Positions 1-11,579 of a stretch of 11,579 bases of DNA are shown one piece after another. Location of the stretch: assembly GCA_963827755.1 (NCBI GenBank), contig CAWHCQ010000015.1, positions 1 to 11,579 on the forward strand, given 5' to 3'. Position 1 is the first letter of the stretch; each line of letters starts with the position of its first letter. Source of the DNA: an uncultured Gammaproteobacteria bacterium (GTDB taxonomy: Bacteria > Pseudomonadota > Gammaproteobacteria > UBA9214). The notes beneath the pieces are model-generated. The model made no database searches. It saw only the letters and a program-made list of their open reading frames with translations, and was not told the origin of the DNA. A program made the translations under genes and the position numbers.

Positions 1-24
1 AAATAACGCATATAGGACTATATC

Positions 25-840
25 ATGCAGGCAGTATCGGGTCTTGGAAAAGTTGATAGAAAACAGTTGTCTGCGATAATTCGCGGCACGAAAGGTGCTG
101 TCTCCGTCGGTGAGGCAGCCACGATTCTCGATGTGTCGCGGGTCGCTGCAGCGAAGAAGCTGGCACGTTGGGCGAGCAAGGGCTGGCTGTCACGTGTGCA
201 GCGCGGGCTTTATGTCTCTGTTCCACTGGAATCCCGAACTTCCGACATCGCGCTGGAAGATCCATGGCTGATTGCAGACCGGTTGTATGCCCCCTGTTAC
301 ATCGGCGGTTGGAGCGCAGCCGAGTACTGGGAACTGACGGAGCAAATATTCCGCACCATCGTGGTAATGACTACCCAGAAACCGCGGGACCGCTCACCGG
401 TTATCAAGGGCACAAGCTTCCTGCTGCGTACTGTGCGGCAAGAAACATTGTTTGGCCTGAAGTCGGTATGGCGTGGTCAAGTAAAGGTGTCGGTATCTGA
501 TCCGAGTCGCACCATCCTGGATGTGTTGAATGATCCACTGCTCGGTGGAGGACTGCGGTCGACCACGGACTTTCTTACCAATTATCTGAAATCGGATAAC
601 CGCGATCTTGATTTGCTGATCGACTATGCCGACCGGCTGGGTAATGGTGCCGTGTTCAAGCGGATGGGTTTCCTGCTGGAACGCCTGGTTCCGGAGGAGC
701 AGAAAGCGATTGATGCGTGCCGGGTGAGAATGACAAAAGGAAATGCAAAACTGGATCCGGCGCTTGCCTCTGACAAGTTGGTAACACGTTGGCGACTGTG
801 GGTGCCGGAAGGTTGGGCAAAGGAGAAGCCTGTTGATTGA
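25..840 (+). CDS. abiEi: Type IV toxin-antitoxin antitoxin, AbiEi family (N-terminal winged-HTH transcriptional regulator)
   Basis: 271 aa ORF with AGGA RBS at 14-17. N-terminal wHTH-like segment (VSVGEAATILDVSRVAAAKKLARWASKGWLSRVQRGLY), followed by YIGGWSAAEYWELTEQ and VSDPSRTILD motifs typical of AbiEi-type antitoxins. Overlaps the downstream AbiEii-type gene by 8 bp. Confidence 0.88.
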   Translation: MQAVSGLGKVDRKQLSAIIRGTKGAVSVGEAATILDVSRVAAAKKLARWASKGWLSRVQRGLYVSVPLESRTSDIALEDPWLIADRLYAPCYIGGWSAAEYWELTEQIFRTIVVMTTQKPRDRSPVIKGTSFLLRTVRQETLFGLKSVWRGQVKVSVSDPSRTILDVLNDPLLGGGLRSTTDFLTNYLKSDNRDLDLLIDYADRLGNGAVFKRMGFLLERLVPEEQKAIDACRVRMTKGNAKLDPALASDKLVTRWRLWVPEGWAKEKPVD

Positions 841-1759
841 TCGGCCGGAAATCATGGAATTCGCCCGAGAATTCGGGCTCGCACCGAATGTCGTCGAGAA
901 GGATTACGTGCTGGGTTGGCTGTTGGCAGGCATTTCCAATCACTCTGAGTTGGGTAATGCCTGGGTGTTCAAGGGCGGTACCTGCCTGAAGAAATGTTAC
1001 TTCGAGACTTATCGCTTTTCCGAGGACCTGGACTTCACGCTTCCCGATGCCGAAATGCTTGACGAGGCCCGGCTTGGTCAGATGTTCAATGATGTTGCTG
1101 ACTGGGTCTATGATCAGGCTGGTATTGAATGTCCACGTGACACCTTTCGATTTGAGGTCTACGAAAACAACCGAGGTGGCATGTCTGCGGAAGGACGGAT
1201 AGGTTATCGCGGACCTATGCAACGCCGCGGGGATTCACCACGTATCAAATTAGATCTGACCAGCGATGAGATACTTGTTCTGGAGCCGGCTAGCCGGGAA
1301 GTTCACCATCCTTACTCCGACAGGCCGGATGGCGGTATCCAGGTTCAGTGTTACAGCTATGAGGAGGTCTTCGCGGAGAAGGTGAGGGCGCTGGCAGAGC
1401 GGGAACGCCCGCGGGATCTTTACGATGTTGTGCATTTATACCGGCACGAGAGTGAACGGCCGGACCGTGCCAGCGTGCTACGTACCCTTGAGGAGAAGTG
1501 TGCTTTTAAAGGTATAGACGTACCTACCATGGCAGCTCTCGAAAATCGTCCAGAGCGTGCGGAACTTGAGACCGAGTGGGCTAACATGCTGGCCCATCAG
1601 TTGCCGGCGTTACCTCCATTTGAGCAGTTCTGGAGTGAGTTGCCAGCAGTCTTCGACTGGTTACATGGTGCCATGGAGAAGGCTGCACCCCAGTCATTTC
1701 CAGCAATGGGTGGCGCAGTGGACGAAACCTGGCGCCCACCTGCGATGGTTCGGGCCTGA
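833..1759 (+). CDS. abiEii: AbiEii/AbiGii-family nucleotidyltransferase toxin (N-terminal part of a probable longer AbiEii-WYL-zinc finger fusion)
   Basis: TTG start with AGGAG at 821-825. Family motifs VEKDY, VFKGGTCLKK, YRFSEDLDF, EEVFAEKVRAL and RPRDLYD. Ends at TGA 1757-1759, but the same frame stays open and protein-like afterwards. Confidence 0.9.
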   Translation: MIDRPEIMEFAREFGLAPNVVEKDYVLGWLLAGISNHSELGNAWVFKGGTCLKKCYFETYRFSEDLDFTLPDAEMLDEARLGQMFNDVADWVYDQAGIECPRDTFRFEVYENNRGGMSAEGRIGYRGPMQRRGDSPRIKLDLTSDEILVLEPASREVHHPYSDRPDGGIQVQCYSYEEVFAEKVRALAERERPRDLYDVVHLYRHESERPDRASVLRTLEEKCAFKGIDVPTMAALENRPERAELETEWANMLAHQLPALPPFEQFWSELPAVFDWLHGAMEKAAPQSFPAMGGAVDETWRPPAMVRA

Positions 1760-2268
1760 CATGCCAATGTACCACTGGAGATTATTCGATTTGCAGCCGC
1801 GAACCATTTGTGTGTGAATCTGACCTATCAAGGCAGTCAGCGCTTGATTGAGCCATATTCCTTGCGTCGCACGCAGGAAGGGAATCTATTGCTTCACGCA
1901 GTCAGACACGAAACAGGAGAGCCCAGGTCATACCGTGTGGATCGCATCCAGGGTGCAGAAGCGACGCGAGAGCCATTCGTGCCGCGTTACGCTATTGAAT
2001 TCAGTGTGTCGGGACCACTCTCGGCACAGGGATACAGTGCGACGATCGATCGGGGCCAAATCCCTTTCGTACGTCAACTTTAACGTCACGTCGTACGCCG
2101 AGGAGAAGCAAGGCCACAAGTTCTGGTCCGAAATATGTTCATCAGTGCACTTTATGCGGGAAGAAGTTCACCAGGAAATCAAATAATTCAAGACTGAATC
2201 CGCATAAAGATAAGCAGGGCTACCCGTGTCCTGGTCGTATCGGTATGTATGTGACCACGAAGTACTAA
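1760..2268 (+). pseudogene. Disrupted C-terminal extension of the AbiEii gene: WYL domain, linker and CxxC..H..C zinc-finger-like domain
   Basis: In frame after the TGA: HANVPLEIIRFAAANHLCVNLTYQGSQRLIEPYSL...LLHAVRHETGEPRSYRVDRIQGA (WYL-like R-x-I-E-P-Y and R-S-Y-R-V-D-R-I). After a -1 shift near 2025-2045 it reads RRSKATSSGPKYVHQCTLCGKKFTRKSNNSRLNPHKDKQGYPCPGRIGMYVTTKY* (TAA 2266-2268). Could be true decay or sequence error. Confidence 0.75.
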
Positions 2269-2318
2269 GTGATACCGGTCATGATGGCAATCATTCTGAC
2301 GTTGTCTAATTTAACAGT

Positions 2319-3303
2319 TCACCCCAGCTTCTTCGCCAAGTCCTCCGCCTTCAGATGCGTATATCGGCGCAGCATGCGCAGATCCTTGTGCCCGGTGATG
2401 CTGGCGACTTCCATGATATTGAGCCCTTTCTCGAACAGCCGGGTGGTGGCCTCGTGGCGCAGGTCATGGAAGCGGAGGTCCTCGATGCCGGCTCGGCGTA
2501 CTGCGCGGATGTAGGCGCGCTTGATCGCTTCGGTGGTGACGCCAGGGAAGACTTGCCCGTGCAGGCTGCGGGGCAGGGCGCGCAGCACCCGGACGGCAGT
2601 CGTGGACAGCGGCACGGTGCGTGACTCGCCGTTCTTGGTGTCCGGCAAATGGGCAGTACGGCGGTTCAGGTCGATGTGTTCCCAGCGCAGGCGGATCAGT
2701 TCCCCCTGGCGCATGGCGGTCTCCAGCGCCAGTTGCACGATGGGCAGCAGCCAGGGATTGCGTGCCTCGCGGCAGGCCTCAAGCAGGCGGGCTTCTTCGC
2801 CGGCCTGCAGGCGCCGGTCCCGTGGCCGGTTGTCGGCCGGCAGCTTGATATCGCGTACCGGGTTGTGGACGTAGATGCCCCATTCCTTGCGGGCGACCTC
2901 GAACACATGGCCCAGCAGCACCAGATCCCGCTTGACGGTGGACGGAGTGACCTTCCGCAGTCGCTCGTCCCGGAAGCGGGCGATGTCCATCCCGCGAATG
3001 CCGGCGACGTAATCGCCGGGCGAGCGGCAGGCGCATCAGGGCGCGCAGACGGTTGGTCTCGGATGCCGCGCCTTTCTTCAGGGGCGTGATCTCGGCCAGG
3101 TAGCGTTCCAGCAGTTCCTTGAGCGTGGTGGACTCGGCCTCGGCGCGGGAGACGAACACGCCCTTGTCCATTTCGACTTCGATGGCGCGCGCCCACTGCT
3201 CGGCCAGGGCACGGGTTTCAAAGGTTTTGGTTTGCAGGGGCTGGCCCTTTTTCCGGACCTGTGCCTGCCACTGGTAAGCGCCGCGTTTTCGGAAGGTTGC
3301 CAC
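2319..3303 (-). CDS. int: Tyrosine recombinase / phage-type site-specific integrase, split by an apparent 1-bp insertion near 3011-3012
   Basis: GTG start at 3303 (MATFRKRG...WQAQVRKKG...TKTF, arm-binding-like N-terminus) with GGAG 7 nt upstream. Removing one base near 3011 joins LPLARR to YVAGIRGMDIARFRDERL, giving about 327 aa. Complete catalytic set: ETAMRQGEL (R), TKNG (K), HDLRH (HxxR), TGH (H), RRYTH (Y). Confidence 0.93.
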
Positions 3304-3350
3304 TGTCACACTCCGTTCATTCGCGAACGAGTGTGACAACAGTGTGACAA
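3304..3350. repeat. Three copies of AGTGTGACA(A): direct pair plus one inverted copy; putative integrase arm-type sites / hairpin
   Basis: AGTGTGACAA at 3330-3339 and 3341-3350; inverted TGTCACACT at 3304-3312. 3304-3318 (TGTCACACTCCGTTC) pairs with 3325-3338 (GAACGAGTGTGACA) with one bulged base and a 6-nt loop. Confidence 0.75.
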
Positions 3351-3390
3351 ATAATCAGTTGGTAACCCATACAGGGGGTGTCGTGGTTTC

Positions 3391-3403
3391 TAACTGATTG
3401 ATT
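3391..3403 (-). promoter_or_regulatory. Putative IHF-binding site in the att region
   Basis: Minus strand reads AATCAATCAGTTA, an exact match to the IHF consensus WATCAANNNNTTR, 4 bp from the tRNA CCA end. Confidence 0.6.
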
Positions 3404-3407
3404 TGAT

Positions 3408-3482
3408 TGGTGGGCGATACTGGGATTGAACCAGTGACCCCTGCCGTGTGAAGGCAGTGCTCTCCCGCTGAGCTAATCGCCC
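3408..3482 (-). tRNA. tRNA-Val (anticodon CAC)
   Basis: Reverse complement is GGGCGATTAGCTCAGCGGGAGAGCACTGCCTTCACACGGCAGGGGTCACTGGTTCAATCCCAGTATCGCCCACCA. Acceptor stem GGGCGAT/ATCGCCC, anticodon stem CTGCC/GGCAG around TT-CAC-AC, T-loop GGTTCAATCC, encoded CCA, 75 nt. Confidence 0.97.
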
Positions 3483-3500
3483 TTGATTAACCAGACGGGA

Positions 3501-3529
3501 AGGGTATGGCTTTGCGGCAGGCCCGTCAA
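3501..3529 (-). promoter_or_regulatory. Putative sigma70 promoter of the tRNA gene
   Basis: Minus strand TTGACG (3529-3524), 17-nt spacer, TACCCT (3506-3501), 18 bp upstream of the mature tRNA 5' end. Confidence 0.6.
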
Positions 3530-3681
3530 ACACGGGACTGAATATCGGATCGCGCGCAGGCATCACATCCCTCGTGGCCGCCATGCGTGCAGCGCCATTG
3601 TCTGCGGAAAGCATCCAGCCCCCGGGCCCTGACATTGCCTGCGATGTTGCAGCCGCCATTCGGAAAGACCCGCCCGGATTC

Positions 3682-3708
3682 TAATGCTTCCCTGATTTCT
3701 GTCGATAA
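3682..3708 (+). promoter_or_regulatory. Putative sigma28 (FliA)-type promoter for the secretion operon
   Basis: TAAT-N15-GTCGATAA versus consensus TAAA-N15-GCCGATAA (two mismatches, exact spacing), about 100 bp upstream of the probable start at 3812. Confidence 0.35.
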
Positions 3709-3811
3709 TCAATGGACTAGCCGAAATAACATGTCTGGATACCGGGCGTGGCCGGGGCTGGTGCAGCTAAGCAGATGTTTTTGTTCTGTATTTTGTCAAT
3801 CACAGAGGGTG

Positions 3812-5572
3812 ATGGTCTTGGAAAAACTGGCGCAGTCATGGCTCGAGCAGCAATGCAATCTGATTCACGGCGCCTGCCGCGGACTGGTAATGCTGAGTGT
3901 GCAGGACAAGGGCCACATGAGCAATGTGGCGCACTGGCCGGCAGACGCTACCGGTTCAACCCTGCTGCTTGCGGCCGCAAGGAAGGCGGTGATGCTATGT
4001 CGACCGGTGATTGAACAGGGCGATGCAGCACAATCACCCGGCGGGCAAAATTTCCATGTCATCGCTTACCCCCTGGTCAGCGAGGAAAAGGCGCTGGGTG
4101 TGATTGCCGTCGAGGTCGAGGCGCAGTCCGATGTACAGCATAAAGAGGTAATGAGCCTGTTGCGGGCCGGAAGCGTGTTTTTCGAAATGCTGCTGGAGCA
4201 GCAGCATGACAAGAGCCGGGAGCGATTGACGCGCATCCTGGAGCTGGTCTCGCTGACGCTTGATCAGCCGCATTTCCAGAGTGCGGCAACATCACTGGCC
4301 ACCCGGCTGGCGAATGAACTGTCCTGCAGCCGTGTCAGCATCGGATTCATGCGCGGACGTTTTGTTACCGTGCGCGCGCTGTCGCACAGCGCCAAACAGG
4401 CTGTAAAAACCAGCCTGTTACGCAGCATCTCCGCTGCCATGGAGGAGGCGATCGACCAGGATACGACGCTGGTCTATCCCGGCAAGGACCATATCAATAT
4501 TGCTCATCGCAAGCTCACAGAGCAAAACCAGGTGACCTCGGCTTGCACCATCCCGCTGGTGAATGACAGGAAGATAACCGGCGCCATTACCTTTGAACGC
4601 AACAACCGGATCCCGTTCGATGCGGATACCGTGGAGTTGTATACGCATGTGGCCAACCTGATCGGGCCGATCCTGGAGCTGAAACGCAGCAACGACACCT
4701 GGCCGATCGTACGAATGCTGGTGTCTGCCGGCGATCTCATGAAAAAGCTGTTTGGACCACGCCATACGACGTTGAAGGCAGGTGCGCTGTCGTTGCTGCT
4801 GTTAACCATCTATATGACCCTGGCGATCGTACCCTACCGGGTTACCGCACAGGCATCACTGGAAGGCAGTGTACAGCGTGCCGTGGTTGCGCCGATCGAC
4901 GGATTTATCCTGGATTCGGATGTCCGTGCCGGTGATATCGTCAAGGCCGGGCAGCTGATGGGTACCCTTGATGACCATGAACTGAAGCTGGAGCAGCAGA
5001 AACTGAGCAGTGAAAAGGCGCGCCATGTACGCGAATACCGCAGCGCCATGGCAGGGCATGAACGTGCGCAGAGTACAATCCTGGACGCACGTATCAGCCA
5101 GGCCGATGCCCGTCTGCAGCTGGTCAACAAGCAGCTCGAACGCATGCAAATCGAGTCGCCGCTCAGCGGCGTGGTGGTGACCGGTGACCTGTCCCAGTCA
5201 CTCGGATCTCCGGTCAGCCGCGGGGATGTGCTGTTCGAGGTCGCGCCGCTGGAAGACTATCGCCTGGTGTTAAGTGTTGACGAACGCGATATGCCCGATA
5301 TTGCCCTTGCCCAGCAAGGCCAGCTGAAACTCTCGGGGCTGCCCGGCGATGCGCTTGCCTTCTCGGTCAGCCGCATCACGCCGGTGTCCGAGTCGGGCGA
5401 TTCTGCCAATTACTACCGGGTTGAAGCACAGCTGGATAATCCGCCGGCGCTGTTGCGTCCCGGCATGCAGGGTGTCGGCAAGGTCGAGATCGGCGAGCGC
5501 AGGCTGCTGTGGATCTGGACGCACAGGATGACCGACTGGCTGAAGCTGAAAGTATGGGCCTGGTGGCCGTGA
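3812..5572 (+). CDS. GAF-domain-containing HlyD-family membrane fusion (periplasmic adaptor) protein
   Basis: Start probably ATG 3812 or TTG 3818 (GAGGG at 3805-3809), not the ORF-track start at 3587. Two GAF-like segments (VIAYPLVSEEKALGVIAVE; ACTIPLVNDRKITGAITFER), one TM helix (AGALSLLLLTIYMTLAIV), lipoyl half-motifs (VVAPIDGFI...VRAGDIVKAGQLM; IESPLSGVVV...VSRGDVLFEV), a coiled-coil hairpin and LRPGM in the beta-barrel. Confidence 0.88.
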   Translation: MVLEKLAQSWLEQQCNLIHGACRGLVMLSVQDKGHMSNVAHWPADATGSTLLLAAARKAVMLCRPVIEQGDAAQSPGGQNFHVIAYPLVSEEKALGVIAVEVEAQSDVQHKEVMSLLRAGSVFFEMLLEQQHDKSRERLTRILELVSLTLDQPHFQSAATSLATRLANELSCSRVSIGFMRGRFVTVRALSHSAKQAVKTSLLRSISAAMEEAIDQDTTLVYPGKDHINIAHRKLTEQNQVTSACTIPLVNDRKITGAITFERNNRIPFDADTVELYTHVANLIGPILELKRSNDTWPIVRMLVSAGDLMKKLFGPRHTTLKAGALSLLLLTIYMTLAIVPYRVTAQASLEGSVQRAVVAPIDGFILDSDVRAGDIVKAGQLMGTLDDHELKLEQQKLSSEKARHVREYRSAMAGHERAQSTILDARISQADARLQLVNKQLERMQIESPLSGVVVTGDLSQSLGSPVSRGDVLFEVAPLEDYRLVLSVDERDMPDIALAQQGQLKLSGLPGDALAFSVSRITPVSESGDSANYYRVEAQLDNPPALLRPGMQGVGKVEIGERRLLWIWTHRMTDWLKLKVWAWWP

Positions 5573-5573
5573 C

Positions 5574-7721
5574 ATGACGCAGTCGATGTACAGCCAGTAC
5601 TGGTACCGTGTTGCGCACGTCCGGCCGCGGATTCGTGATCATATCCAGTTGCACCGCCACTATTACCGCGGTCGTCGCAGCTACATGCTGCAGGATGAAT
5701 CCAGCGGCGCGTTTCACAGTTTCAGTCCGGAGGTCTACGTGCTCATCGGCCAGATGGACGGCAAGCGCACGATTGACGAAATCTGGGAGACCACGCTGGA
5801 AAAACTCGGCGAGGATGCGCCCGGCCAGGAAGAGACACTGCACCTGCTGGGGCAGTTGCATGCCGCGGATATCCTGCAGTGCAACATCACGCCTGACATT
5901 CTCGAGGTGTTCCAGCGCTACCGCAACAAGCGGCGCCAGGACTGGAAGCAGCGCCTGACCAACCCGATGTTCCTGCGCCTGCCGCTGTGGGACCCGCACA
6001 AGTTCCTGACCCGCTGGATGCCGCTGGTACGGCCGCTATTCAGCTGGGGCGGCTTTGCGCTCTGGGCCCTTGTCGTGTTGCTGGGCACTGTATATGCAGG
6101 CATTTACTGGGAGCCGATTACCGCGGACATCGTCGACCGGATGCTGAATCCCTGGAACCTGGTCATCATGGCGATCACCTATCCGGTGGTGAAACTGTTG
6201 CATGAATTCGGCCACGCGTTTGCCACCCGCCTGTGGGGTGGTGAAGTCCACGAGATGGGGATCATGTTCCTGGTGCTGATGCCCATTCCCTATGTCGATG
6301 CCACGGCCTCGGCCGGTTTTCCGCAGAAGCATCGGCGTTTCCTGGTGAGTGCGGCCGGCATGATGGTGGAACTGTTCCTCGCGTCGCTCGCGCTGTTTGT
6401 GTGGATCAATGTCGACACCGGCATCGTCAGTGCCGTTGCCTATAACATCATGCTCATCGGCAGTATTTCCACGCTGTTCTTCAATGGCAACCCGCTGTTG
6501 CGCTTCGACGGTTACTACATGCTGGCGGATGCCGTCGAGATCCCCAACCTCAGCGTGCGTGCAAAGCGTTACCTGAACTACCTGGCGATGCGCTATTTGT
6601 ATGGCATGGACGAGGTGTCCTCACCGGTGTCGGCACATGGCGAGGCGGCCTGGTTTGCGCTCTACGGCGTTGCCTCGTTCGTCTATCGCATGGCGATCAT
6701 CGCCGTGATCATTCTCTACATAGCCGGAAAGTTCTTTTTCGTCGGAGTGATGCTGGCAATCTGGGCGGTCATCCTGCAGATCGTCCTGCCACTGGTACGG
6801 CATATCAAATTTCTACTCAACGATGGCCGCCTGCAGCAGCAGCGCACGCGTGCCCTCGGCGTGACAGCTGCCGGCCTGGTGCTGGTGGGCGTGATCCTGT
6901 TTGCAATACCGGCGCCGCTCTGGACCATGACCGAGGGTGTGGTCTGGCTGCCGGAAAAGTCGCGCATTCGGGCCGGTACTGACTGCTTTGTCACGGCCGT
7001 GCTGGCGCAAACTGACAGCGCCGTAAAAAGCGGCGATCCTGTCGTGACCTGTGAAGACCCGTTGCTGTCGGCAGAGGTCATGGTGCTGGACGCGCGCCTG
7101 CAGGAACTGCGTGCACAACACACGCAGGCGATGACAGATGCGCCCGTCGAGGCACTGAGCATCATGCAGGATATACAGGCCCTGAACGAACAACTCAATG
7201 AAGCACGCCGGCGAATGGGTGAACTGGTATTGCGCAGCACAGCTGACGGTCAGCTGGTGATCCCGATGTCGTCTGATCTCGAAGGCCGCTATGTGCACCG
7301 TGGCGCAACACTGGCCTATGTCATTAACGATGCTGCAAGCCGTGCGCGGGTGGTTGTGACGCAGGCCGATATCGGGCTGGTCAGGCAGCGCACCAGCGGT
7401 GTCGAGCTGCGTATGGCCGGAAAGCCGGGACAAGCGATTGCCGCCAGCGTGCACAGCGAGGTGCCGGCGGCCTCGGATGAATTACCGAGCAAGGCGCTGG
7501 GGACCAGTGGTGGCGGCATGATACCGGTCGACCCGGCCGATGAGTCGGGCACCCGGGCTTTGGCAACCCTGTTCCAGTTCGAGCTGGAGCTGGAGGAGAA
7601 CCTGCCTGCACAACTCTACGGTCAGCGCGTCTATGTCCGTTTTGACCATGGTGCGGAACCGCTCGGCATCCAGTGGCAGCGCTCGTTGCGGCAGCTTTTC
7701 ATGCGCGAGTTCGGGGTCTGA
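5574..7721 (+). CDS. M50 (site-2 protease family) membrane metallopeptidase with N-terminal PqqD/RRE-like domain and C-terminal HlyD-like module
   Basis: HEFGH zinc motif (6201-6215) and NPLLRFDG (6489-6512) within several TM helices. N-terminal MDGKRTIDEI...LLGQLHAADIL resembles PqqD-type wHTH. C-terminal lipoyl/coiled-coil segment (VKSGDPVV...LRSTADGQLV...YVHRGATLAYV). Starts 1 bp after the upstream stop. Confidence 0.87.
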   Translation: MTQSMYSQYWYRVAHVRPRIRDHIQLHRHYYRGRRSYMLQDESSGAFHSFSPEVYVLIGQMDGKRTIDEIWETTLEKLGEDAPGQEETLHLLGQLHAADILQCNITPDILEVFQRYRNKRRQDWKQRLTNPMFLRLPLWDPHKFLTRWMPLVRPLFSWGGFALWALVVLLGTVYAGIYWEPITADIVDRMLNPWNLVIMAITYPVVKLLHEFGHAFATRLWGGEVHEMGIMFLVLMPIPYVDATASAGFPQKHRRFLVSAAGMMVELFLASLALFVWINVDTGIVSAVAYNIMLIGSISTLFFNGNPLLRFDGYYMLADAVEIPNLSVRAKRYLNYLAMRYLYGMDEVSSPVSAHGEAAWFALYGVASFVYRMAIIAVIILYIAGKFFFVGVMLAIWAVILQIVLPLVRHIKFLLNDGRLQQQRTRALGVTAAGLVLVGVILFAIPAPLWTMTEGVVWLPEKSRIRAGTDCFVTAVLAQTDSAVKSGDPVVTCEDPLLSAEVMVLDARLQELRAQHTQAMTDAPVEALSIMQDIQALNEQLNEARRRMGELVLRSTADGQLVIPMSSDLEGRYVHRGATLAYVINDAASRARVVVTQADIGLVRQRTSGVELRMAGKPGQAIAASVHSEVPAASDELPSKALGTSGGGMIPVDPADESGTRALATLFQFELELEENLPAQLYGQRVYVRFDHGAEPLGIQWQRSLRQLFMREFGV

Positions 7722-7724
7722 TTC

Positions 7725-9728
7725 ATGCTTTCCGCCAGTAAAGCGGTATATCGACCAGGGCTGCAGCTTGGTGCCTACCCTGAACACCACGCTGCAGATA
7801 GCGGCTGGCTGGATGTCCTGTTTGCGCAGATCAGCGGATACGCGGGAGCGCGCCTGAAGTGGCAGGACCGGCGCCTGCTGGCCTTCGCACGTAATGTCGA
7901 GTCTGCCGGTGTGTCATTGTCCGGCCTGGACGAGACGGATTTCAGGCGCCGCATCGACGCCATCAGAAAAGTGTTGCGCCGTGATGGCTTGTCCAAAAAA
8001 CACCTGGCGATGGCCTTTGCCATTGTGCGTGAGGCTGCCACGCGCACGCTGGGTATTCGTCATTATGACGTGCAGCTGATGGCCGGCCGCGTGCTGCTCG
8101 ATGGCATGCTGGCGGAAATGGAAACCGGTGAAGGCAAGACGCTGATGGCGACTCTGCCGGCCTCTGTGGCGGCGCTCGCCGGTATCCCGGTGCATGTGAT
8201 CACCGTCAACGATTACCTCGTCCAGCGCGATACCGAAGATATGTCGCCGCTGTATCACTACCTCGGCCTGAGCGTCGGCATGATTACCGAGCAGATGGAG
8301 GAGGATGAACGGCGTGCAGCCTATGCTGCCGACATCACCTACTGTACCAACAAGACACTGGTATTCGATTACCTGCGCGATCGTGTAAAGCTCAGGGATG
8401 TGCAGGGTGGCATATCATTGCATGCCGAAAAAGTTTATACAGAAAAGGCCCGCCTTGATTCGGTGCTGATGCGCGGCCTGTGTTTTTGCATTGTCGACGA
8501 GGCCGACAGCGTATTGATCGACGAGGCCGGCACGCCATTGATCCTGTCGCAGGGCGGCCAGGTCCAGGAAAAGGATGAAGTGTTGTTCCGCCAGGCCGTG
8601 CAGCTTGCCCGGTCACTCAAGCCGGGTAAGGACTTCAGCATCGACGAGAAACTGCGCCAGGTGCGACTGACAGCAGCCGGCAGAGGGCGTGCCACGGATG
8701 CCGGCGACAAGCTCGGCGGTCAGTGGCAGATGCGCACACGTTGCGAGGAGCTGGTCAGCCAGGCCCTGAGTGCCTGTCACCTGTTCAAGCGCGATCGTGA
8801 GTACCTGGTGAAGGACGGCAAGGTCATGATCATCGATGATTTTACCGGACGCGTCATGGCGGACCGCAAGTGGGAGCGTGGCCTGCACCAGATGATCGAG
8901 GTCAAGGAAGGCTGCGAGGTCACTCCGCCGAACGAGGTACAGGCGCGTATCAGTTACCAGAAGTTTTTCCGCCGTTACCTGCACCTGTCCGGCATGACCG
9001 GTACGGCGCGTGAGACGGCGGCTGAACTGAATGCCATATATGCACTCAAGGTCGTAAAGATCCCCACGCATCGCCAATCGCAACTGCAGCGACTGCCTGA
9101 CCAGTTGTACTCCGGGCAGGATGCCAAGTGGCGCCGCATTGTTACGCGCGTCATCGAACTGCACAAACAGCAGCGCCCTGTACTGGTCGGGACGCGCTCG
9201 GTGGCCGACAGCGAAACCCTGAGCCGAATGCTCGTGCGTGTCGGCCTGCCACACCAGGTGCTGAATGCCCGCCAGGACAGGGATGAGGCCGAGCTGATCG
9301 CGCAGGCAGGTCAGCCAGGTGCCATCACCATCGCCACCAACATGGCCGGACGCGGTACCGATATCATGCTGGCAGCCGGGGTGCGTAAGCGCGGCGGACT
9401 GCATGTGATTGCGGCAGAGCGCAACAGTGCCAGGCGTATTGACCGCCAGCTGTTCGGCCGGGCGGGCCGCCAGGGTGATCCGGGCAGCTGCGAGGCGATC
9501 CTGGCGCTGGATGACCGCATTATCAGTGAATTTATCCCTAAATATCTCAGCCGACTGGCCGACTTATCTGACAGGAACAGGGATTCACTCCCTGAATGGC
9601 TGAGGACAATGATTGTCACGTATTGCCAACGCAGGTCGGAATCACAGCAGCGCCAGGCACGCAAGGCGCTGACGCGAATGGATGAATACCTGGGCAGGGC
9701 GCTGGCATTCTCGGGCAAGGAAGAATAG
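7725..9728 (+). CDS. secA: Short accessory SecA paralogue (SecA DEAD ATPase + preprotein cross-linking domain, lacking most of the C-terminal wing/scaffold)
   Basis: SecA motifs HYDVQL, EMETGEGKT, VHVITVNDYL, FDYLRD, IVDEADSVLIDEA, GLHQMIEVKE, LSGMTGTA, VLNARQ, IATNMAGRGTDI and RRIDRQLFGRAGRQGDPG. Only 667 aa, ending about 80 aa after the last helicase motif. Confidence 0.92.
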   Translation: MLSASKAVYRPGLQLGAYPEHHAADSGWLDVLFAQISGYAGARLKWQDRRLLAFARNVESAGVSLSGLDETDFRRRIDAIRKVLRRDGLSKKHLAMAFAIVREAATRTLGIRHYDVQLMAGRVLLDGMLAEMETGEGKTLMATLPASVAALAGIPVHVITVNDYLVQRDTEDMSPLYHYLGLSVGMITEQMEEDERRAAYAADITYCTNKTLVFDYLRDRVKLRDVQGGISLHAEKVYTEKARLDSVLMRGLCFCIVDEADSVLIDEAGTPLILSQGGQVQEKDEVLFRQAVQLARSLKPGKDFSIDEKLRQVRLTAAGRGRATDAGDKLGGQWQMRTRCEELVSQALSACHLFKRDREYLVKDGKVMIIDDFTGRVMADRKWERGLHQMIEVKEGCEVTPPNEVQARISYQKFFRRYLHLSGMTGTARETAAELNAIYALKVVKIPTHRQSQLQRLPDQLYSGQDAKWRRIVTRVIELHKQQRPVLVGTRSVADSETLSRMLVRVGLPHQVLNARQDRDEAELIAQAGQPGAITIATNMAGRGTDIMLAAGVRKRGGLHVIAAERNSARRIDRQLFGRAGRQGDPGSCEAILALDDRIISEFIPKYLSRLADLSDRNRDSLPEWLRTMIVTYCQRRSESQQRQARKALTRMDEYLGRALAFSGKEE

Positions 9729-9759
9729 GGCCTAACGTTAACTTGAAAGAGCTGAAATC

Positions 9760-10635
9760 ATGAGATTACTCACTTTTATAAAACTGTTTGTCTTGCTTCC
9801 CGGTCTACTGCTGCCGGCTGTTGTCAATGCAATGGAATATTACTGCATGATGGAGCCGCATCGTACGGTCGAGGTGAAGAGCTCGGTTAACGGCAGGATC
9901 GAGGCAATCAATGTCGAACGCAGTGATTTTATAACTGCCGGTCAGCCACTGGTGGTATTCGAATCGAGGGTTGAAAAGGCCACGGTGGAGCTGGCACGCG
10001 CCAAGGTAGAAATGCGGGCCGAATATGACAGCAGCCGGGTCAGTCACCGTTTTGCAGTTCGCAAGCTGGGGCGTTTTGACGGTCTCGCGGAAGAGGGCGT
10101 GGTAGCGATTCAGATCAAGGATGAAGTGGAGACCGAGGCATCACTCGCCAGGTTGCAAATGCTCCAGGCGAAGGAGAACAGGCGTCTTGCCGAGCTGGAA
10201 CTCGATCGAGCCCTTGCTGTACTCAGCCAGCACACGGTCGTCAGTCCGCTGACAGGCGTTGTTGTCGATCGCCTCAAATCACCGGGTGATTACGCCGAAG
10301 ATGGTGCAATCGTCAAGGTCGCCCAGCTGGATCCGCTCAATATCGAAGTGCTGCTGCCAGCCTCGAAGTTTGGCACGATCAAACCGGGTATGAAGGCACG
10401 CGTTACCCCTGAATTCGGACTCGAGGGCAGTTATGCGGCCGAAGTGAAGATTGTCGATCGCGTGGTGGATGCCTCGAGCGGCATGTTCGGTGTGCGCCTT
10501 GAACTGCCCAATCCCGACAACAAGTTACCGGGTGGCCTGAAGTGCACGCTCAATTTTGAGGGCGACACCTCGCCGCGGGTATCCGGCAATTTCCCGGTGG
10601 TTGGCAAGGCCGACTTTGATCTCGCCAGAAAGTAA
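9760..10635 (+). CDS. RND/HlyD-family periplasmic adaptor (membrane fusion protein) with probable signal peptide
   Basis: N-terminal MRLLTFIKLFVLLPGLLLPAVVNA; lipoyl motifs VKSSVNGRIEAINVERSDFITAGQPLV and VVSPLTGVVV; alpha-hairpin; IVDRVVDASSGMFGVRLELPNPDNKLPGG. Confidence 0.9.
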   Translation: MRLLTFIKLFVLLPGLLLPAVVNAMEYYCMMEPHRTVEVKSSVNGRIEAINVERSDFITAGQPLVVFESRVEKATVELARAKVEMRAEYDSSRVSHRFAVRKLGRFDGLAEEGVVAIQIKDEVETEASLARLQMLQAKENRRLAELELDRALAVLSQHTVVSPLTGVVVDRLKSPGDYAEDGAIVKVAQLDPLNIEVLLPASKFGTIKPGMKARVTPEFGLEGSYAAEVKIVDRVVDASSGMFGVRLELPNPDNKLPGGLKCTLNFEGDTSPRVSGNFPVVGKADFDLARK

Positions 10636-10758: not shown

Positions 10759-10785
10759 TCAAGTTAGGCCGTAAAGAGCCGATTT
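10759..10785 (+). promoter_or_regulatory. Putative sigma28 (FliA)-type promoter for the exoprotein gene
   Basis: TCAAGTTA-N11-GCCGATTT versus extended consensus TAAAGTTT-N11-GCCGATAA (equivalently TCAAG-N14-GCCGAT), 86 bp upstream of ATG 10872, in an AT-rich intergenic region. Confidence 0.5.
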
Positions 10786-10871
10786 CCATTGTGTGAGTAT
10801 GCGCACGGTTTTCGTGTGTCTCGCATGTTTTCGGCGATTAGTGCCGGGAACACATGGAAGCGGACGCTAAA

Positions 10872-11579
10872 ATGGCAAAGAAAGACAAATACAAGAAAAG
10901 ATACAAAAACAAAGCCGAGCTGGAAGCGGTCGAACCGCGCCTGCTGTTTTCCGCCGGGCTGGAAGGCGTGCTTGCGGCCGAGCACGTGCAGGCGCCGGCG
11001 GACGATTACAGCCAGGCGGTGGTGGAGCAGGGCAACGCCGGCAGCACTGCCGATACCCGCGAGGCCGCCGCCAGCGATGTGCGTGTCGAGCTGATCTTTG
11101 TCGACACCGACACACCGGAATACCAGACCCTGTTGTCCGACCTGTTGACCTACCCGGATGACGCCACCCGTTACCAGGTCTTCGAACTCGATAACAGCCA
11201 GGACGGTATCGCACAGATTACTGCCATTCTCAGCGGCTATGAGAATGTCAGTGCCATCCATCATCCTCTCGCACGGGTCGGAGGGTTCCATCGATCTCGG
11301 TGGCGGTACGCTGGACAGTGACACGCTGGCGGCCAATGCGGACCTGGTACGTTCCTGGGGCAGTGCCTTCAGCGAAAACGGCGACATCCTTATCTATGGT
11401 TGCAATCTCGCGGCAGACGATGCCGGCCAGCTGCTGGTGAACAACCTGGCTGCATTGACCGGCACCGATGTTGCGGCCTCCGATGACCTGACCGGCAGTG
11501 CCGGACTGGGCGGTGACTGGGATCTGGAATACCAGGTCGGGCAGGTAAGCGCAGTCCTCTCCATCGATCACAGCCAGCA
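10872..11579 (+). CDS. N-terminus of a LEPRxLL-motif, DUF4347-domain probable large exoprotein/adhesin (partial; apparent +1 frameshift near 11262)
   Basis: MAKKDKYKKRYKNKAELEAVEPRLLFSA leader, then ELIFVD...QDGIAQITAILSGYENVSAIH. After removing one base at about 11262 it continues ILSHGSEGSIDLG...WGSAFSENGDILIYGCNLAA...LTGTDVAASDDLTGSAGLGGDWDLEYQVG, the typical DUF4347 pattern. Open to the window end. Confidence 0.85.

Follow-up and report, generated by a model that had tools for sequence, protein, structure and literature searches.

Does the locus examined here encode a new defence system, in which a nucleic-acid sensor is wired directly to a toxic enzyme? The window (the whole stretch of DNA analysed, 11,579 nucleotides) carries at positions 833-2268, + strand, the remains of an ancestral three-domain toxin gene, which the original prediction presented as a cryptic fusion. 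We consider it very probable that 833-2268 belongs to a widespread, catalogued AbiE toxin subfamily and was broken only recently. Because it is a broken copy of such a gene in a decaying island, the locus is an ordinary one and no new defence system. The ancestral toxin would have been a single polypeptide of ~470-480 aa, consisting of an AbiEii/DUF1814 nucleotidyltransferase (NTase), a WYL domain with a Sm-like fold, a disordered basic linker rich in Ser, Arg, Pro and Thr, and a small C2HC finger with the pattern C-x2-C-x15-H-x7-C.

The toxin gene lies in an AbiE operon. Directly upstream is an intact, COG5340-type abiEi antitoxin/regulator gene (25-840, + strand, 271 aa), which is recognized by Pfam AbiEi_4 (E 4.7e-8) and by the PADLOC AbiEi model PDLC02271 (E 6.9e-116). 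Its TGA stop and the TTG start of the toxin ORF (833-1759) overlap; this ORF has 308 aa and is closed by a TGA at 1757-1759. In 80 of 80 related loci, an AbiEi homologue directly precedes the toxin gene in the same orientation. In one of these, L001, the orthologue is equal in length and 93% identical in amino acids, with a dN/dS of 0.144. AbiE of Lactococcus lactis and Streptococcus agalactiae has the same two-gene operon, in which the genes overlap, the first encoding a COG5340-type wHTH antitoxin and the second a DUF1814 NTase, and shares the catalytic core and the S/T phospho-acceptor position with this family. By contrast, toxins of this subfamily have ~170 extra C-terminal residues, AbiEi here has 271 aa and the window copy is broken.

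The 308 codons before the TGA (833-1756, + strand) encode the NTase domain. Pfam PF08843 matches residues 30-267 (E 3.3e-42) and, at 145.5 bits against a cut-off of 22.5, assigns the protein to the DUF1814/AbiEii toxins. The motif list for these NTases, which reportedly goes back in part to Dy et al. 2014, comprises G-G/S, S/T-x-D-x-D with the phospho-acceptor, and a K...R-x-R-D-x-x-D helix. The window's frame contains all the corresponding motifs (FKGGTCL, RFSEDLDF and AEKVRALAERERPRDLYD); 89 of 89 homologues have S63, D65 and D67, and K183, R190, R192, R194 and D195 are likewise invariant among homologues. The intact homologue P0015 is matched by 32 PADLOC AbiEii models (best E 6e-191), and its AF2 model (pLDDT 82, pTM 0.75) allowed a comparison of folds. 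The best Foldseek matches of its NTase part are MenT3/TglT and MenT4 of Mycobacterium tuberculosis (6y5u, 6j7p, 6y56; E 7.2e-8 to 1e-5, TM on target 0.56-0.62), with MenT4 6y56 at E 7.2e-8, and JHP933 is also matched. The family profile additionally matches MenT4 6y56 at the FKGGT...RFSxDLDF core (E 1.9e-4).

Beyond the TGA, the NTase frame continues through a WYL domain and the start of the linker (1760-2029, + strand). Pfam PF13280 matches here with E 3.4e-8 and 33.8 bits (cut-off 21.8), covering profile positions 3-69 of 70. A phmmer search of the WYL part against the PDB gave no match. In the model of P0015, rather than in the window's broken protein, this part is beta-rich (pLDDT ~90) and has the Sm-like beta-barrel fold. 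Its Foldseek matches are DriD (9cu3, E 1.4e-4; 7tzv, 3.9e-4), PafBC (9fnd, 2.6e-4), CapW (7tb5, 6.7e-4) and BrxR (7qfz, 6.3e-3). The Pfam match above the cut-off and these fold matches bear out the WYL assignment that had been made from the window alone. DriD, CapW, BrxR and PafBC share the WYL fold and the Pfam WYL family with these toxins, and their WYL domain binds ssDNA, but they are dimeric wHTH-WYL-WCX transcription factors, while this family is an enzyme without HTH or WCX. In intact homologues, Pfam detects no family other than AbiEii and WYL, and the N-terminus is the NTase; we rejected membership of the wHTH-WYL-WCX regulator family because wHTH and WCX are missing.

Three lesions interrupt the gene. 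The first is the in-frame TGA at 1757-1759 (+ strand), which replaces a Trp codon (TGG to TGA). The Trp that was expected at this position is present in 119 of 120 homologues, the remaining one having Leu, and the codon is TGG in L001 and L002. The second is one extra base within 2028-2033 (+ strand), where the exact base is ambiguous among the six positions; it shifts the frame from 1 to 2, the L001 DNA has a one-base gap and the protein alignment breaks. Nine linker codons (DTVRRSIGA; 2031-2057, + strand) follow in the middle frame only, and align with TVRRSTGA or TARRSIGA of homologues. The third lesion is one extra A in an A run (2058-2060, + strand), which shifts the frame from 2 to 3. 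It appears as a one-base gap in L001 opposite GCCAAATCC, and as a gap in 120 of 120 homologues at an X placed there. The original prediction thus recognized the TGA, but where it restored a single base near 2030 there are really two one-base insertions ~26 nt apart. The net frame is nevertheless the one that it described.

The third frame encodes the rest of the basic Ser/Arg/Pro/Thr-rich linker (2059-2118, + strand) and a finger-like mini-domain with the stop (2119-2268, + strand), which ends in ...GPKYVHQCTLCGKKFTRKSNNSRLNPHKDKQGYPCPGRIGMYVTTKY. In 89 homologues, the linker has 29-47 residues and consists of 19% S, 16% R, 12% P and 10% T; the AF2 model shows it as disordered (pLDDT <50 at residues 394-430). 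A family HMM matches the finger at all 49 positions (E 1.2e-26), a value that is partly circular since the building set includes the window's segment. The ligand columns are strongly conserved (C439 in 88 of 89, C442 in 89, H458 in 88 and C466 in 88), and a 40-row alignment of the tail shows no variation at the C, C, H and C positions. This conserved pattern of four ligands suggests a putative zinc finger of the C2HC rather than the C2H2 type. The C-x2-C-G-K-x-F...L-x2-H stretch and the G-Y-P-C end resemble one classical C2H2 or BED finger, a linker and the first Cys of the next finger. However, a classical C2H2 finger has a second His, whereas here the fourth ligand is a Cys seven residues on. 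The C-to-H spacing is 15 here; in C2H2 fingers, it is usually 12.

Pfam finger models do not score above their cut-offs: zf-C2H2 reaches 14-18 bits (cut-off 25.2) and zf-BED 12-20.6 bits (cut-off 20.6, reached only in P0103). An AF2 model of the segment built with 40 sequences (pLDDT 86) has three beta strands and no helix, rather than a beta-beta-alpha fold. Foldseek with this model found no significant fold (best E 0.31), and a profile search of the PDB gave Gfi-1 at a non-significant E of 0.063. The finger profile is essentially specific to the family: among its top 150 representatives, 146 match the family profile. Six of the 150 are eukaryote-type C2H2 arrays, namely the four non-matches plus P0145 and P0225, which match via repeated finger-like stretches only.

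The segments on the two sides of the lesions belong to one broken gene, as had been predicted. Read through with an X at each of the three breaks, the frame is 479 positions long and has the order NTase, WYL, finger, whereas 120 homologues and the L001 DNA lack the one nonsense mutation and the two +1 frameshifts. Homologues do not end near residue 308 with WYL as a separate gene; they continue as single ORFs with the same tail, including the terminal finger. The same domain order occurs in P0002-P0015 and others. The nearest homologue of the toxin is intact and 97% identical. Relative to L001, and with each part in its own frame, dN/dS is 0.123 for the NTase, 0.086 for WYL and 0.077 for linker plus finger, so the 2101-2268 frame is conserved. 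Chance frames are excluded by the 97% identical homologue together with the low values for WYL and for linker plus finger, and the dN/dS of ~0.08 past the stop indicates that the breakage is recent. No ORF in the program-made list spans the finger tail, and it is true that the list misses the last domain.

The surroundings of the toxin gene are also decaying. Immediately after its stop is a deletion scar (2269-2314, + strand), which contains ~29 nt from the beginning of a downstream gene and then 17 nt that replace 1,434 bp of L001. In blastn alignments, window positions 1-2297 correspond to L001 3170-5466, and 2315-3482 to L001 6901-8066. The gene cut by the scar is whole in L001 (ORF 5438-6871, 477 aa); its product matches no Pfam family and has no homologue in the other 79 loci. 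Next comes a tyrosine integrase pseudogene (2319-3339, - strand), which is split by a frameshift at ~2990-3040. Its 223-aa C piece matches Pfam Phage_integrase (E 1.2e-34); compared with a 357-aa integrase, this piece covers residues 106-357, while the N piece corresponds to residues 1-88. A tRNA-Val(CAC) gene (3408-3482, - strand; found by ARAGORN, Rfam tRNA 66.1 bits) is likely the integration site and the border of the island. L001 has the same tRNA arrangement; its toxin is intact, it carries the extra 1.43 kb, and its integrase orthologue is a single ORF of 339 aa. The abiEi-toxin pair is very probably cargo of a decaying tRNA-Val integrative island. Given that the toxin gene is broken three times and lies in an island whose integrase is broken too, the sensor-wired toxin proposed for this locus could not be made from it.

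Sequencing or assembly errors could give the same appearance, in which case the organism would have an intact three-domain toxin gene. Both indels in the toxin gene are single-base and lie in or beside short homopolymer runs (lesion 3 within an aaa run, lesion 2 beside a ggg run), dN/dS is as low past the stop as before it, and the closeness of the intact homologue fits as well. Isolated AbiEi frameshifts also occur in L059 and L070, related loci from long-read-style assemblies. However, the change of TGG to TGA is a substitution and no homopolymer error. Moreover, all three gene indels in the window sit in two island genes, which account for 2,457 of ~10,287 coding nt, and an even spread of indels would produce this with a chance of ~0.014 (hand arithmetic). 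Five other ORFs, of 271-715 aa, are uninterrupted, and the 1.43-kb deletion adjoining the toxin gene shows that decay of the island is real. We therefore regard errors as an improbable explanation.

Programmed recoding, with the TGA read as Trp or Sec and with programmed frameshifts so that the full protein is made, is scarcely credible. A C follows the TGA; TGA-C is a leaky stop context in E. coli, and a near-cognate tRNA-Trp would restore the ancestral residue. Yet homologues need no recoding to encode the Trp, the codon is TGG in L001 and L002, which also lack the frameshifts, and two separate +1 shifts 26 nt apart are unprecedented in relatives. In the window, TGA is the genuine stop of abiEi and two other genes, six ORFs that were checked use TGG for Trp at 49 positions, and an in-frame TGA occurs in no other ORF.

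If the gene is really broken, its 308-aa product might still function. The locus may have been remodelled into a domain-loss allele whose product is a working AbiEii of canonical length under AbiEi control, although we think this rather unlikely. The truncation falls at a domain border, since residue 267 is the last one in the Pfam NTase match and residues 270-277 form the model's last helix, and the product has lost no part of the Pfam NTase domain and none of the catalytic motifs. PADLOC PDLC02304, a 260-position AbiEii model without WYL, matches residues 1-273 (E 5.9e-73). In addition, abiEi is intact with a dN/dS of 0.144, and loss of the tail is tolerated in relatives. By contrast, every natural short form in the related loci retains WYL (394-411 aa), the sole exception being the decayed L080 with an end near residue 282. 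Two more frameshifts have also accumulated downstream of the TGA, and the island is decaying.

This architecture is not new, nor is it cryptic. Relatives are numerous: of the 8,000 candidates that were scored, 7,964 reach E<=1e-3. Species-representative genomes from many phyla contain at least 594 relatives, and the finger is present in 1,321 representative clusters. Among the best 120 homologues, 113 have both PF08843 and PF13280; 104 are 448-487 aa long and the other 16 are 389-428 aa. PADLOC PDLC02317 spans NTase and WYL end to end, as in this subfamily; with E 6e-191, positions 1-395 of this 396-position model match residues 1-399 of P0015. Makarova et al. 2014 (PMC4012209) named WYL fused to an 'AbiGII-like nucleotidyltransferase (DUF1814)' and suggested a ligand-sensing role that regulates AbiG-type abortive infection. 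Their Supplementary File 6 lists a class 'AbiGII-like-nucleotidyltransferase+WYL+C2H2', with five members according to its header, among them entries of 486, 476 and 407 aa, in which the finger is labelled zf-C2H2. The 486-aa entry (DUF1814+WYL+zf-C2H2) has the same domain order as the toxin described here; order and lengths agree, and we see no architectural difference. Of the original prediction, then, the three-domain ORF and its WYL domain stand, while the cryptic nature of the fusion and a sensor-wired toxin at this locus do not. Our literature search found no experimental study of the AbiEii-WYL-finger subfamily.

How intact relatives might work can be outlined by homology. Judging from MenT toxins and S. 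agalactiae AbiEii, the NTase domain would block translation by adding nucleotides to tRNA 3' ends. AbiEi would bind the NTase and induce inhibitory auto-phosphorylation of the Ser in S-x-D-x-D, as work on S. agalactiae and MenT suggests, and the WYL, linker and finger tail may bind single-stranded nucleic acid. MenT3/TglT and MenT4 are modifiers of tRNA 3' ends that become silenced when auto-phosphorylation is induced; they differ from this family in being single-domain proteins of ~290 aa without WYL or finger. The tRNA target assigned to this family rests on such distant homologues, at 13-22% identity. The preprint of Arrowsmith et al. 2026 reports that the 3'-CCA end of tRNA is where MenT toxins add nucleotides, that AbiEii has pyrimidine-specific NTase activity, and that AbiEi binding induces phosphorylation of T65, the equivalent of MenT3 S78. 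Defence is not a general role of AbiE: in E. coli, S. agalactiae AbiE gave protection from 0 of 32 phages.

The role of the tail is less clear. Mean net charges over 89 sequences are -16 for the NTase, +2.8 for WYL, +6.7 for the linker and +7.0 for the finger. A strongly basic tail beside an acidic catalytic domain would fit binding of a substrate RNA at least as well as sensing. The reading to which we give most weight, with a chance a little short of even, is that the tail acts as a substrate-RNA clamp that gives affinity or specificity to the acidic catalytic domain. Speaking against a clamp, every characterised WYL domain that we found, in the portions of the literature covered, is an allosteric ssDNA sensor; Makarova et al. 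also proposed sensing for the fusion. That the tail is an allosteric trigger sensor is a tentative alternative, and that it does something else altogether is a fairly doubtful one.

Sensing would mean that, in intact relatives, WYL with the finger senses phage ssDNA or RNA and either activates the NTase or frees it from AbiEi control, which we find possible but unlikely. In DriD, CapW and PafBC, ssDNA bound by the WYL domain serves as an allosteric signal. The WYL part of P0015 matches their structures, the fusion itself has been proposed to sense a ligand, and the literature, as far as it was covered, still seeks the trigger of AbiE. Five arginines (R346, R347, R366, R369 and R372) are conserved in at least 83 of 89 homologues. 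On the other hand, the homodimer architecture of the wHTH-WYL-WCX regulators is absent. In CapW, two arginines flanking the WYL-equivalent motif (RWHVR) contact ssDNA. These are not kept in this family, where the W-Y-L triad is L-L-L and the columns read N (79 of 89)-L-L-L-(Y 37/H 23). Further, the finger tail has been lost about ten times independently in relatives while the gene remained open, and it is therefore accessory.

It is also conceivable, though we rate it as unlikely, that in intact members the tail is a built-in trigger for single-stranded nucleic acid arising in phage replication or DNA damage, and that the finger losses and the stepwise disarming of the gene record selection against firing too easily. 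If this were true, this AbiE subfamily would be a sensor and effector in one polypeptide, which switches a tRNA-modifying NTase on or frees it from AbiEi-induced phosphorylation. On this view, leaky reading of TGA-C by tRNA-Trp could yield a little NTase-WYL protein from the locus in the window.

The window itself is one more, broken example of the subfamily. It matters for annotation, given that a gene caller reports a normal-looking 308-aa AbiEii and misses both the decay of the island and the fact that this ORF is the stump of a 478-aa three-domain toxin. That relatives have lost the finger tail repeatedly and recently is a minor new finding, which suggests that the conflict centres on the tail. 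With the WYL-finger subfamily, which is large and spread over many phyla, one can test directly whether an appendage that binds nucleic acid gates a tRNA-modifying toxin or aims it.

The toxin gene (window 833-2268) carries three lesions and lies downstream of abiEi. The abiEi ORF (25-840, 271 aa) matches the Pfam family AbiEi_4 (E 4.7e-8), and its TGA stop overlaps the TTG start of an AbiEii/DUF1814 ORF (833-1759, 308 aa; Pfam E 3.3e-42, residues 30-267). A WYL domain (PF13280, E 3.4e-8; 33.8 bits, cut-off 21.8) is encoded in the same frame directly 3′ of TGA 1757-1759, and this frame terminates at 2081-2083. Another frame, which ends at 2268, contributes a stretch rich in Ser, Thr and Arg, followed by GPKYVHQCTLCGKKFTRKSNNSRLNPHKDKQGYPCPGRIGMYVTTKY. 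This C-terminal C2HC mini-domain, the finger tail, is covered by no ORF in the ORF listing of the window. The original prediction had described a nucleotidyltransferase (NTase), the TGA, WYL, the Ser/Thr/Arg stretch and a tail outside the ORF track, and the ORFs, Pfam matches and translations agree with that description.

We searched for homologues with the read-through protein, using X at the stop, and 7,964 of 8,000 scored candidates matched at E≤1e-3. Both PF08843 and PF13280 are present in 113 of the 120 best homologues, whose lengths are 448-487 aa (104 proteins) or 389-428 aa (16 proteins). The top homologue is 97% identical. The original prediction had looked to homologues for a Trp at the TGA position and for the terminal finger. 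When the best 120 were aligned with the window pieces, that position proved to be Trp in 119 and Leu in one, and the full-length forms have the finger tail. At the DNA level, the codon is TGG both in L001, the closest genomic relative (a contig of an Acidiferrobacteraceae MAG), and in L002, another related abiE locus. Recoding of TGA as Trp or Sec can be rejected, because TGA ends abiEi and two other window genes and Trp is encoded by TGG 49 times in the six ORFs examined.

It had also been proposed that a single base be restored near 2030. The frame change is real, but alignments indicate two events rather than one, since 2031-2057 encodes DTVRRSIGA in a middle frame and this peptide matches homologues (TVRRSTGA or TARRSIGA). 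In the L001 DNA alignment there are two one-base gaps, opposite window 2028-2033 and the A run at 2058-2060.

The surroundings of the gene are those of an integrative island. The minus strand carries a tRNA-Val(CAC) gene at 3408-3482, and tRNA is all that an Rfam scan detected. The adjoining tyrosine integrase is split by a frameshift into an N piece (3339 to about 3040) and a C piece (2990-2322), which match residues 1-88 and 106-357, respectively, of a 357-aa integrase. Window 1-2297 corresponds to L001 3170-5466 (87.7% identity) and window 2315-3482 to L001 6901-8066 (85.6% identity). L001 has the same tRNA-Val, and both its integrase (339 aa) and its toxin gene (479 aa) are unbroken. Between these two genes, abutting the toxin gene, it has a 477-aa ORF, of which only ~29 nt are left in the window. 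The tRNA, the split integrase and the synteny with L001 therefore establish the order of the window's island as tRNA-Val, integrase (broken), deletion, abiEii (broken) and abiEi (intact). Window 2269-3482 is the right end of this island, with the tRNA-Val(CAC), the frameshifted integrase and a 1.43-kb deletion scar; the left end is beyond the window. A scan of 1-3700 for direct repeats that could mark the island ends gave only short, imperfect families. The GC content is 67% over the integrase, compared to about 54% in the abiE genes. In a promoter/terminator scan, the number of promoter-like sites (3, with 1.6 expected) did not stand out from chance.

The 477-aa ORF of L001 (5438-6871, between abiEii and the integrase) belongs to no known family. 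We rejected it as a conserved third gene of the system because Pfam assigns it no family and the other 79 of the 80 best related abiE loci contain no homologue. Linkage to an integrase was likewise discarded as a family trait, since a tyrosine-recombinase-like ORF was present in the retrieved flanking sequence of only 4/80 loci. Upstream of abiE, the L001 island (1-3170) encodes a DUF4238 protein and a reverse transcriptase (RVT_1, E 1.2e-13), and it resembles a small defence island.

The dN/dS ratios relative to L001, each calculated in the segment's own frame, are 0.144 for AbiEi, 0.123 for the NTase, 0.086 for WYL, 0.077 for the linker plus finger and 0.057 for the integrase C piece. Given the low values in WYL and in the linker plus finger, the segments 3′ of the stop codon were still evolving as coding sequence during almost the whole of the divergence from L001. 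The breakage of the toxin gene is thus probably recent. The lesions could also be sequencing or assembly errors in a gene that is intact in the organism, but we regard this explanation as quite unlikely, and three observations favour real decay. The three indels of window genes all fall within two island genes, which account for 2,457 of ~10,287 coding nt (chance ~0.014 if evenly spread). Moreover, one of the toxin-gene lesions is a substitution, and the 1.43-kb deletion adjoins the toxin gene.

Outside the island, window 3587-10635 contains four co-directional, tightly packed genes. Their products are a 661-aa HlyD protein that also has a GAF domain, a 715-aa fusion of a peptidase-M50-like part with HlyD, a SecA-like ATPase with only 667 residues, and a small, 291-aa HlyD protein. 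PADLOC contains none of the four, and we predict that they form an unusual export cluster of SecA-like type. A DUF4347 protein (E 3.8e-37) begins within the window (11158-11577) and runs past its end; it is overlapped by a 207-aa minus-strand ORF (10764-11387) that has no Pfam family.

A scan of genome contigs found at least 594 relatives of the toxin. The 80 best occur in Pseudomonadota, Nitrospirota, Thermodesulfobacteriota, Acidobacteriota, Myxococcota, Gemmatimonadota, Elusimicrobiota, Actinomycetes and others, and all 80 have an AbiEi homologue immediately upstream in the same orientation. Members carry the database names “WYL domain-containing protein” or “AbiEii/AbiGII toxin family protein”. 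In the L077 contig, a second, divergent abiEi-abiEii pair (1-1100) is found some 3 kb away from the first and in the opposite orientation.

According to the tail profile, 63 of the 80 loci have the finger; the gene is a single open frame in 61 of them and frameshifted in two (L018, L033). Eleven loci stop soon after WYL and have no finger in any frame (L010, L011, L012, L014, L022, L025, L031, L035, L050, L055 and L067), although this call is less certain for L022, whose contig runs only 55 nt beyond the stop, and for L055, which has a masked stretch downstream. The 17 finger-negative loci also include four decayed toxin genes (L028, L054, L074, L080) and two that are cut by contig ends (L002, L040). 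Decayed toxin genes are found in 6/80 loci overall (L018, L028, L033, L054, L074, L080), and a split abiEi stands beside an open toxin gene in L059 and L070. Some of this decay may be error, as some of these loci are in long-read-style assemblies.

We used FastTree to build a tree of the NTase-WYL part from 75 loci and the window, leaving out L002, L040, L018, L028 and L080, in which no single ORF covers the region. The 11 finger-less forms require 10 changes on this tree, at least nine of them forced by well-supported branches, and cluster no more strongly than shuffled labels do (mean 10.4). Most have a finger-bearing close relative as their tree neighbour. Because the changes are so scattered and mostly lie beside such relatives, the finger tail has been lost often and recently, in about ten independent events.

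Structure predictions used P0015, an intact homologue. Its AF2 model (89 sequences; pLDDT 82, pTM 0.75) has a disordered linker (394-430) and a confident, beta-rich finger (431-478). Foldseek searches of the PDB matched the N-terminal domain to MenT4 (6y56, E 7.2e-8), MenT3/TglT entries and H. pylori JHP933, and the WYL part to DriD, PafBC, CapW and BrxR. Among PDB sequences, the family profile matched MenT4 at FKGGT...RFSxDLDF (E 1.9e-4), and its likeness to C2H2 fingers was non-significant (Gfi-1, E 0.063).

The putative zinc ligands of the finger are spaced C-x2-C-x15-H-x7-C and are conserved in 88, 89, 88 and 88 of 89 sequences, respectively. Modelled alone (AF2, 40 sequences, pLDDT 86), the finger has three strands and no helix. 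It could not be named by its fold: Foldseek found no significant match in the PDB (best E 0.31), and the top rows were zinc-ribbon-bearing proteins. Pfam finger models scored at or below cut-off, and no NCBIfam model covers P0015 or the tail. A finger profile run against 1.84 billion representatives yielded 1,321 protein matches with E≤1e-3, of which 276 reach E≤1e-10. Of the top 150 matches, 146 fit the family profile and 144 belong to the family, for the most part as C-terminal pieces of the fusion. The other six are eukaryote-type C2H2 arrays, namely the four that do not fit and P0145 and P0225, two proteins that match the family only via repeated finger-like stretches. The finger was therefore rejected as a module of other proteins and, judging by the 144 members, is apparently private to the AbiEii-WYL-finger family. 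The cross-match of the bacterial finger profile (window 2119-2265 and its homologues) to eukaryote-type C2H2/KRAB arrays covers profile positions 8-38, which amount to one finger, a linker and the next Cys.

For the toxin core, a precedent comes from MenT toxins, which add nucleotides to the tRNA 3′-CCA end, and from S. agalactiae AbiEii, a pyrimidine-specific NTase in which AbiEi binding leads to inhibitory auto-phosphorylation of T65, equivalent to MenT3 S78 (Arrowsmith et al. 2026 preprint). Further sources on MenT/AbiEii mechanism are a 2024 Nature Communications paper, Cai 2020 and Xu 2023. In our family, S63-x-D65-x-D67 is invariant (89/89 sequences) and is probably the same phospho-acceptor and catalytic motif. 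With this motif, intact members should be tRNA-directed toxins kept off by AbiEi.

Mean net charges over the 89 sequences are -16 for the NTase, +2.8 for WYL, +6.7 for the linker and +7.0 for the finger. A strongly basic, partly disordered tail on an acidic catalytic domain fits a nucleic-acid-binding appendage. Basic tails or zinc knuckles are frequent on RNA 3′-end NTases, and RNA 3′ ends are held by Sm-like folds. Given these precedents, and since the tail is dispensable enough to be lost repeatedly, we tentatively prefer to see it as a clamp for the substrate RNA. Prediction of a complex of residues 1-393 (the NTase-WYL body) with the finger tail and Zn, performed without controls, gave a score of 0.00 in both runs, which counts neither for nor against docking.

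A sensor role for the tail, by analogy to WYL regulators, is in our estimation rather unlikely. For WYL itself a sensor has the better precedent, in DriD, CapW and PafBC. However, the wHTH and WCX parts of these regulators are absent from the toxin family. Because a phmmer search of the PDB with the window's WYL part matched nothing (E≤10), ligand contacts were compared only by motif with the CapW paper; the toxin family lacks the arginines found on either side of CapW's WYL-equivalent motif and reads N-LLL-x there.

The original interpretation is partly supported: its three-domain architecture is right, but it is not novel, and the window copy is broken. Makarova et al. (2014) described WYL domains in combination with the “AbiGII-like nucleotidyltransferase (DUF1814)” and proposed a ligand-sensing domain that regulates AbiG and other defence systems. 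Supplementary File 6 of that paper lists a class “AbiGII-like-nucleotidyltransferase+WYL+C2H2” with five members per its header, and its entries include proteins of 486, 476 and 407 aa. The 396-position AbiEii model of PADLOC-DB v2 also spans the NTase plus WYL. In openly searchable full-text literature we found no experimental or dedicated study of the fusion, and “WYL” does not occur in the 2026 AbiEii preprint. The window gene is a defective addition to an already known architecture. Its value is mainly in pointing to an uncharacterised subfamily and to the recurrent loss of its tail, rather than in the window locus.
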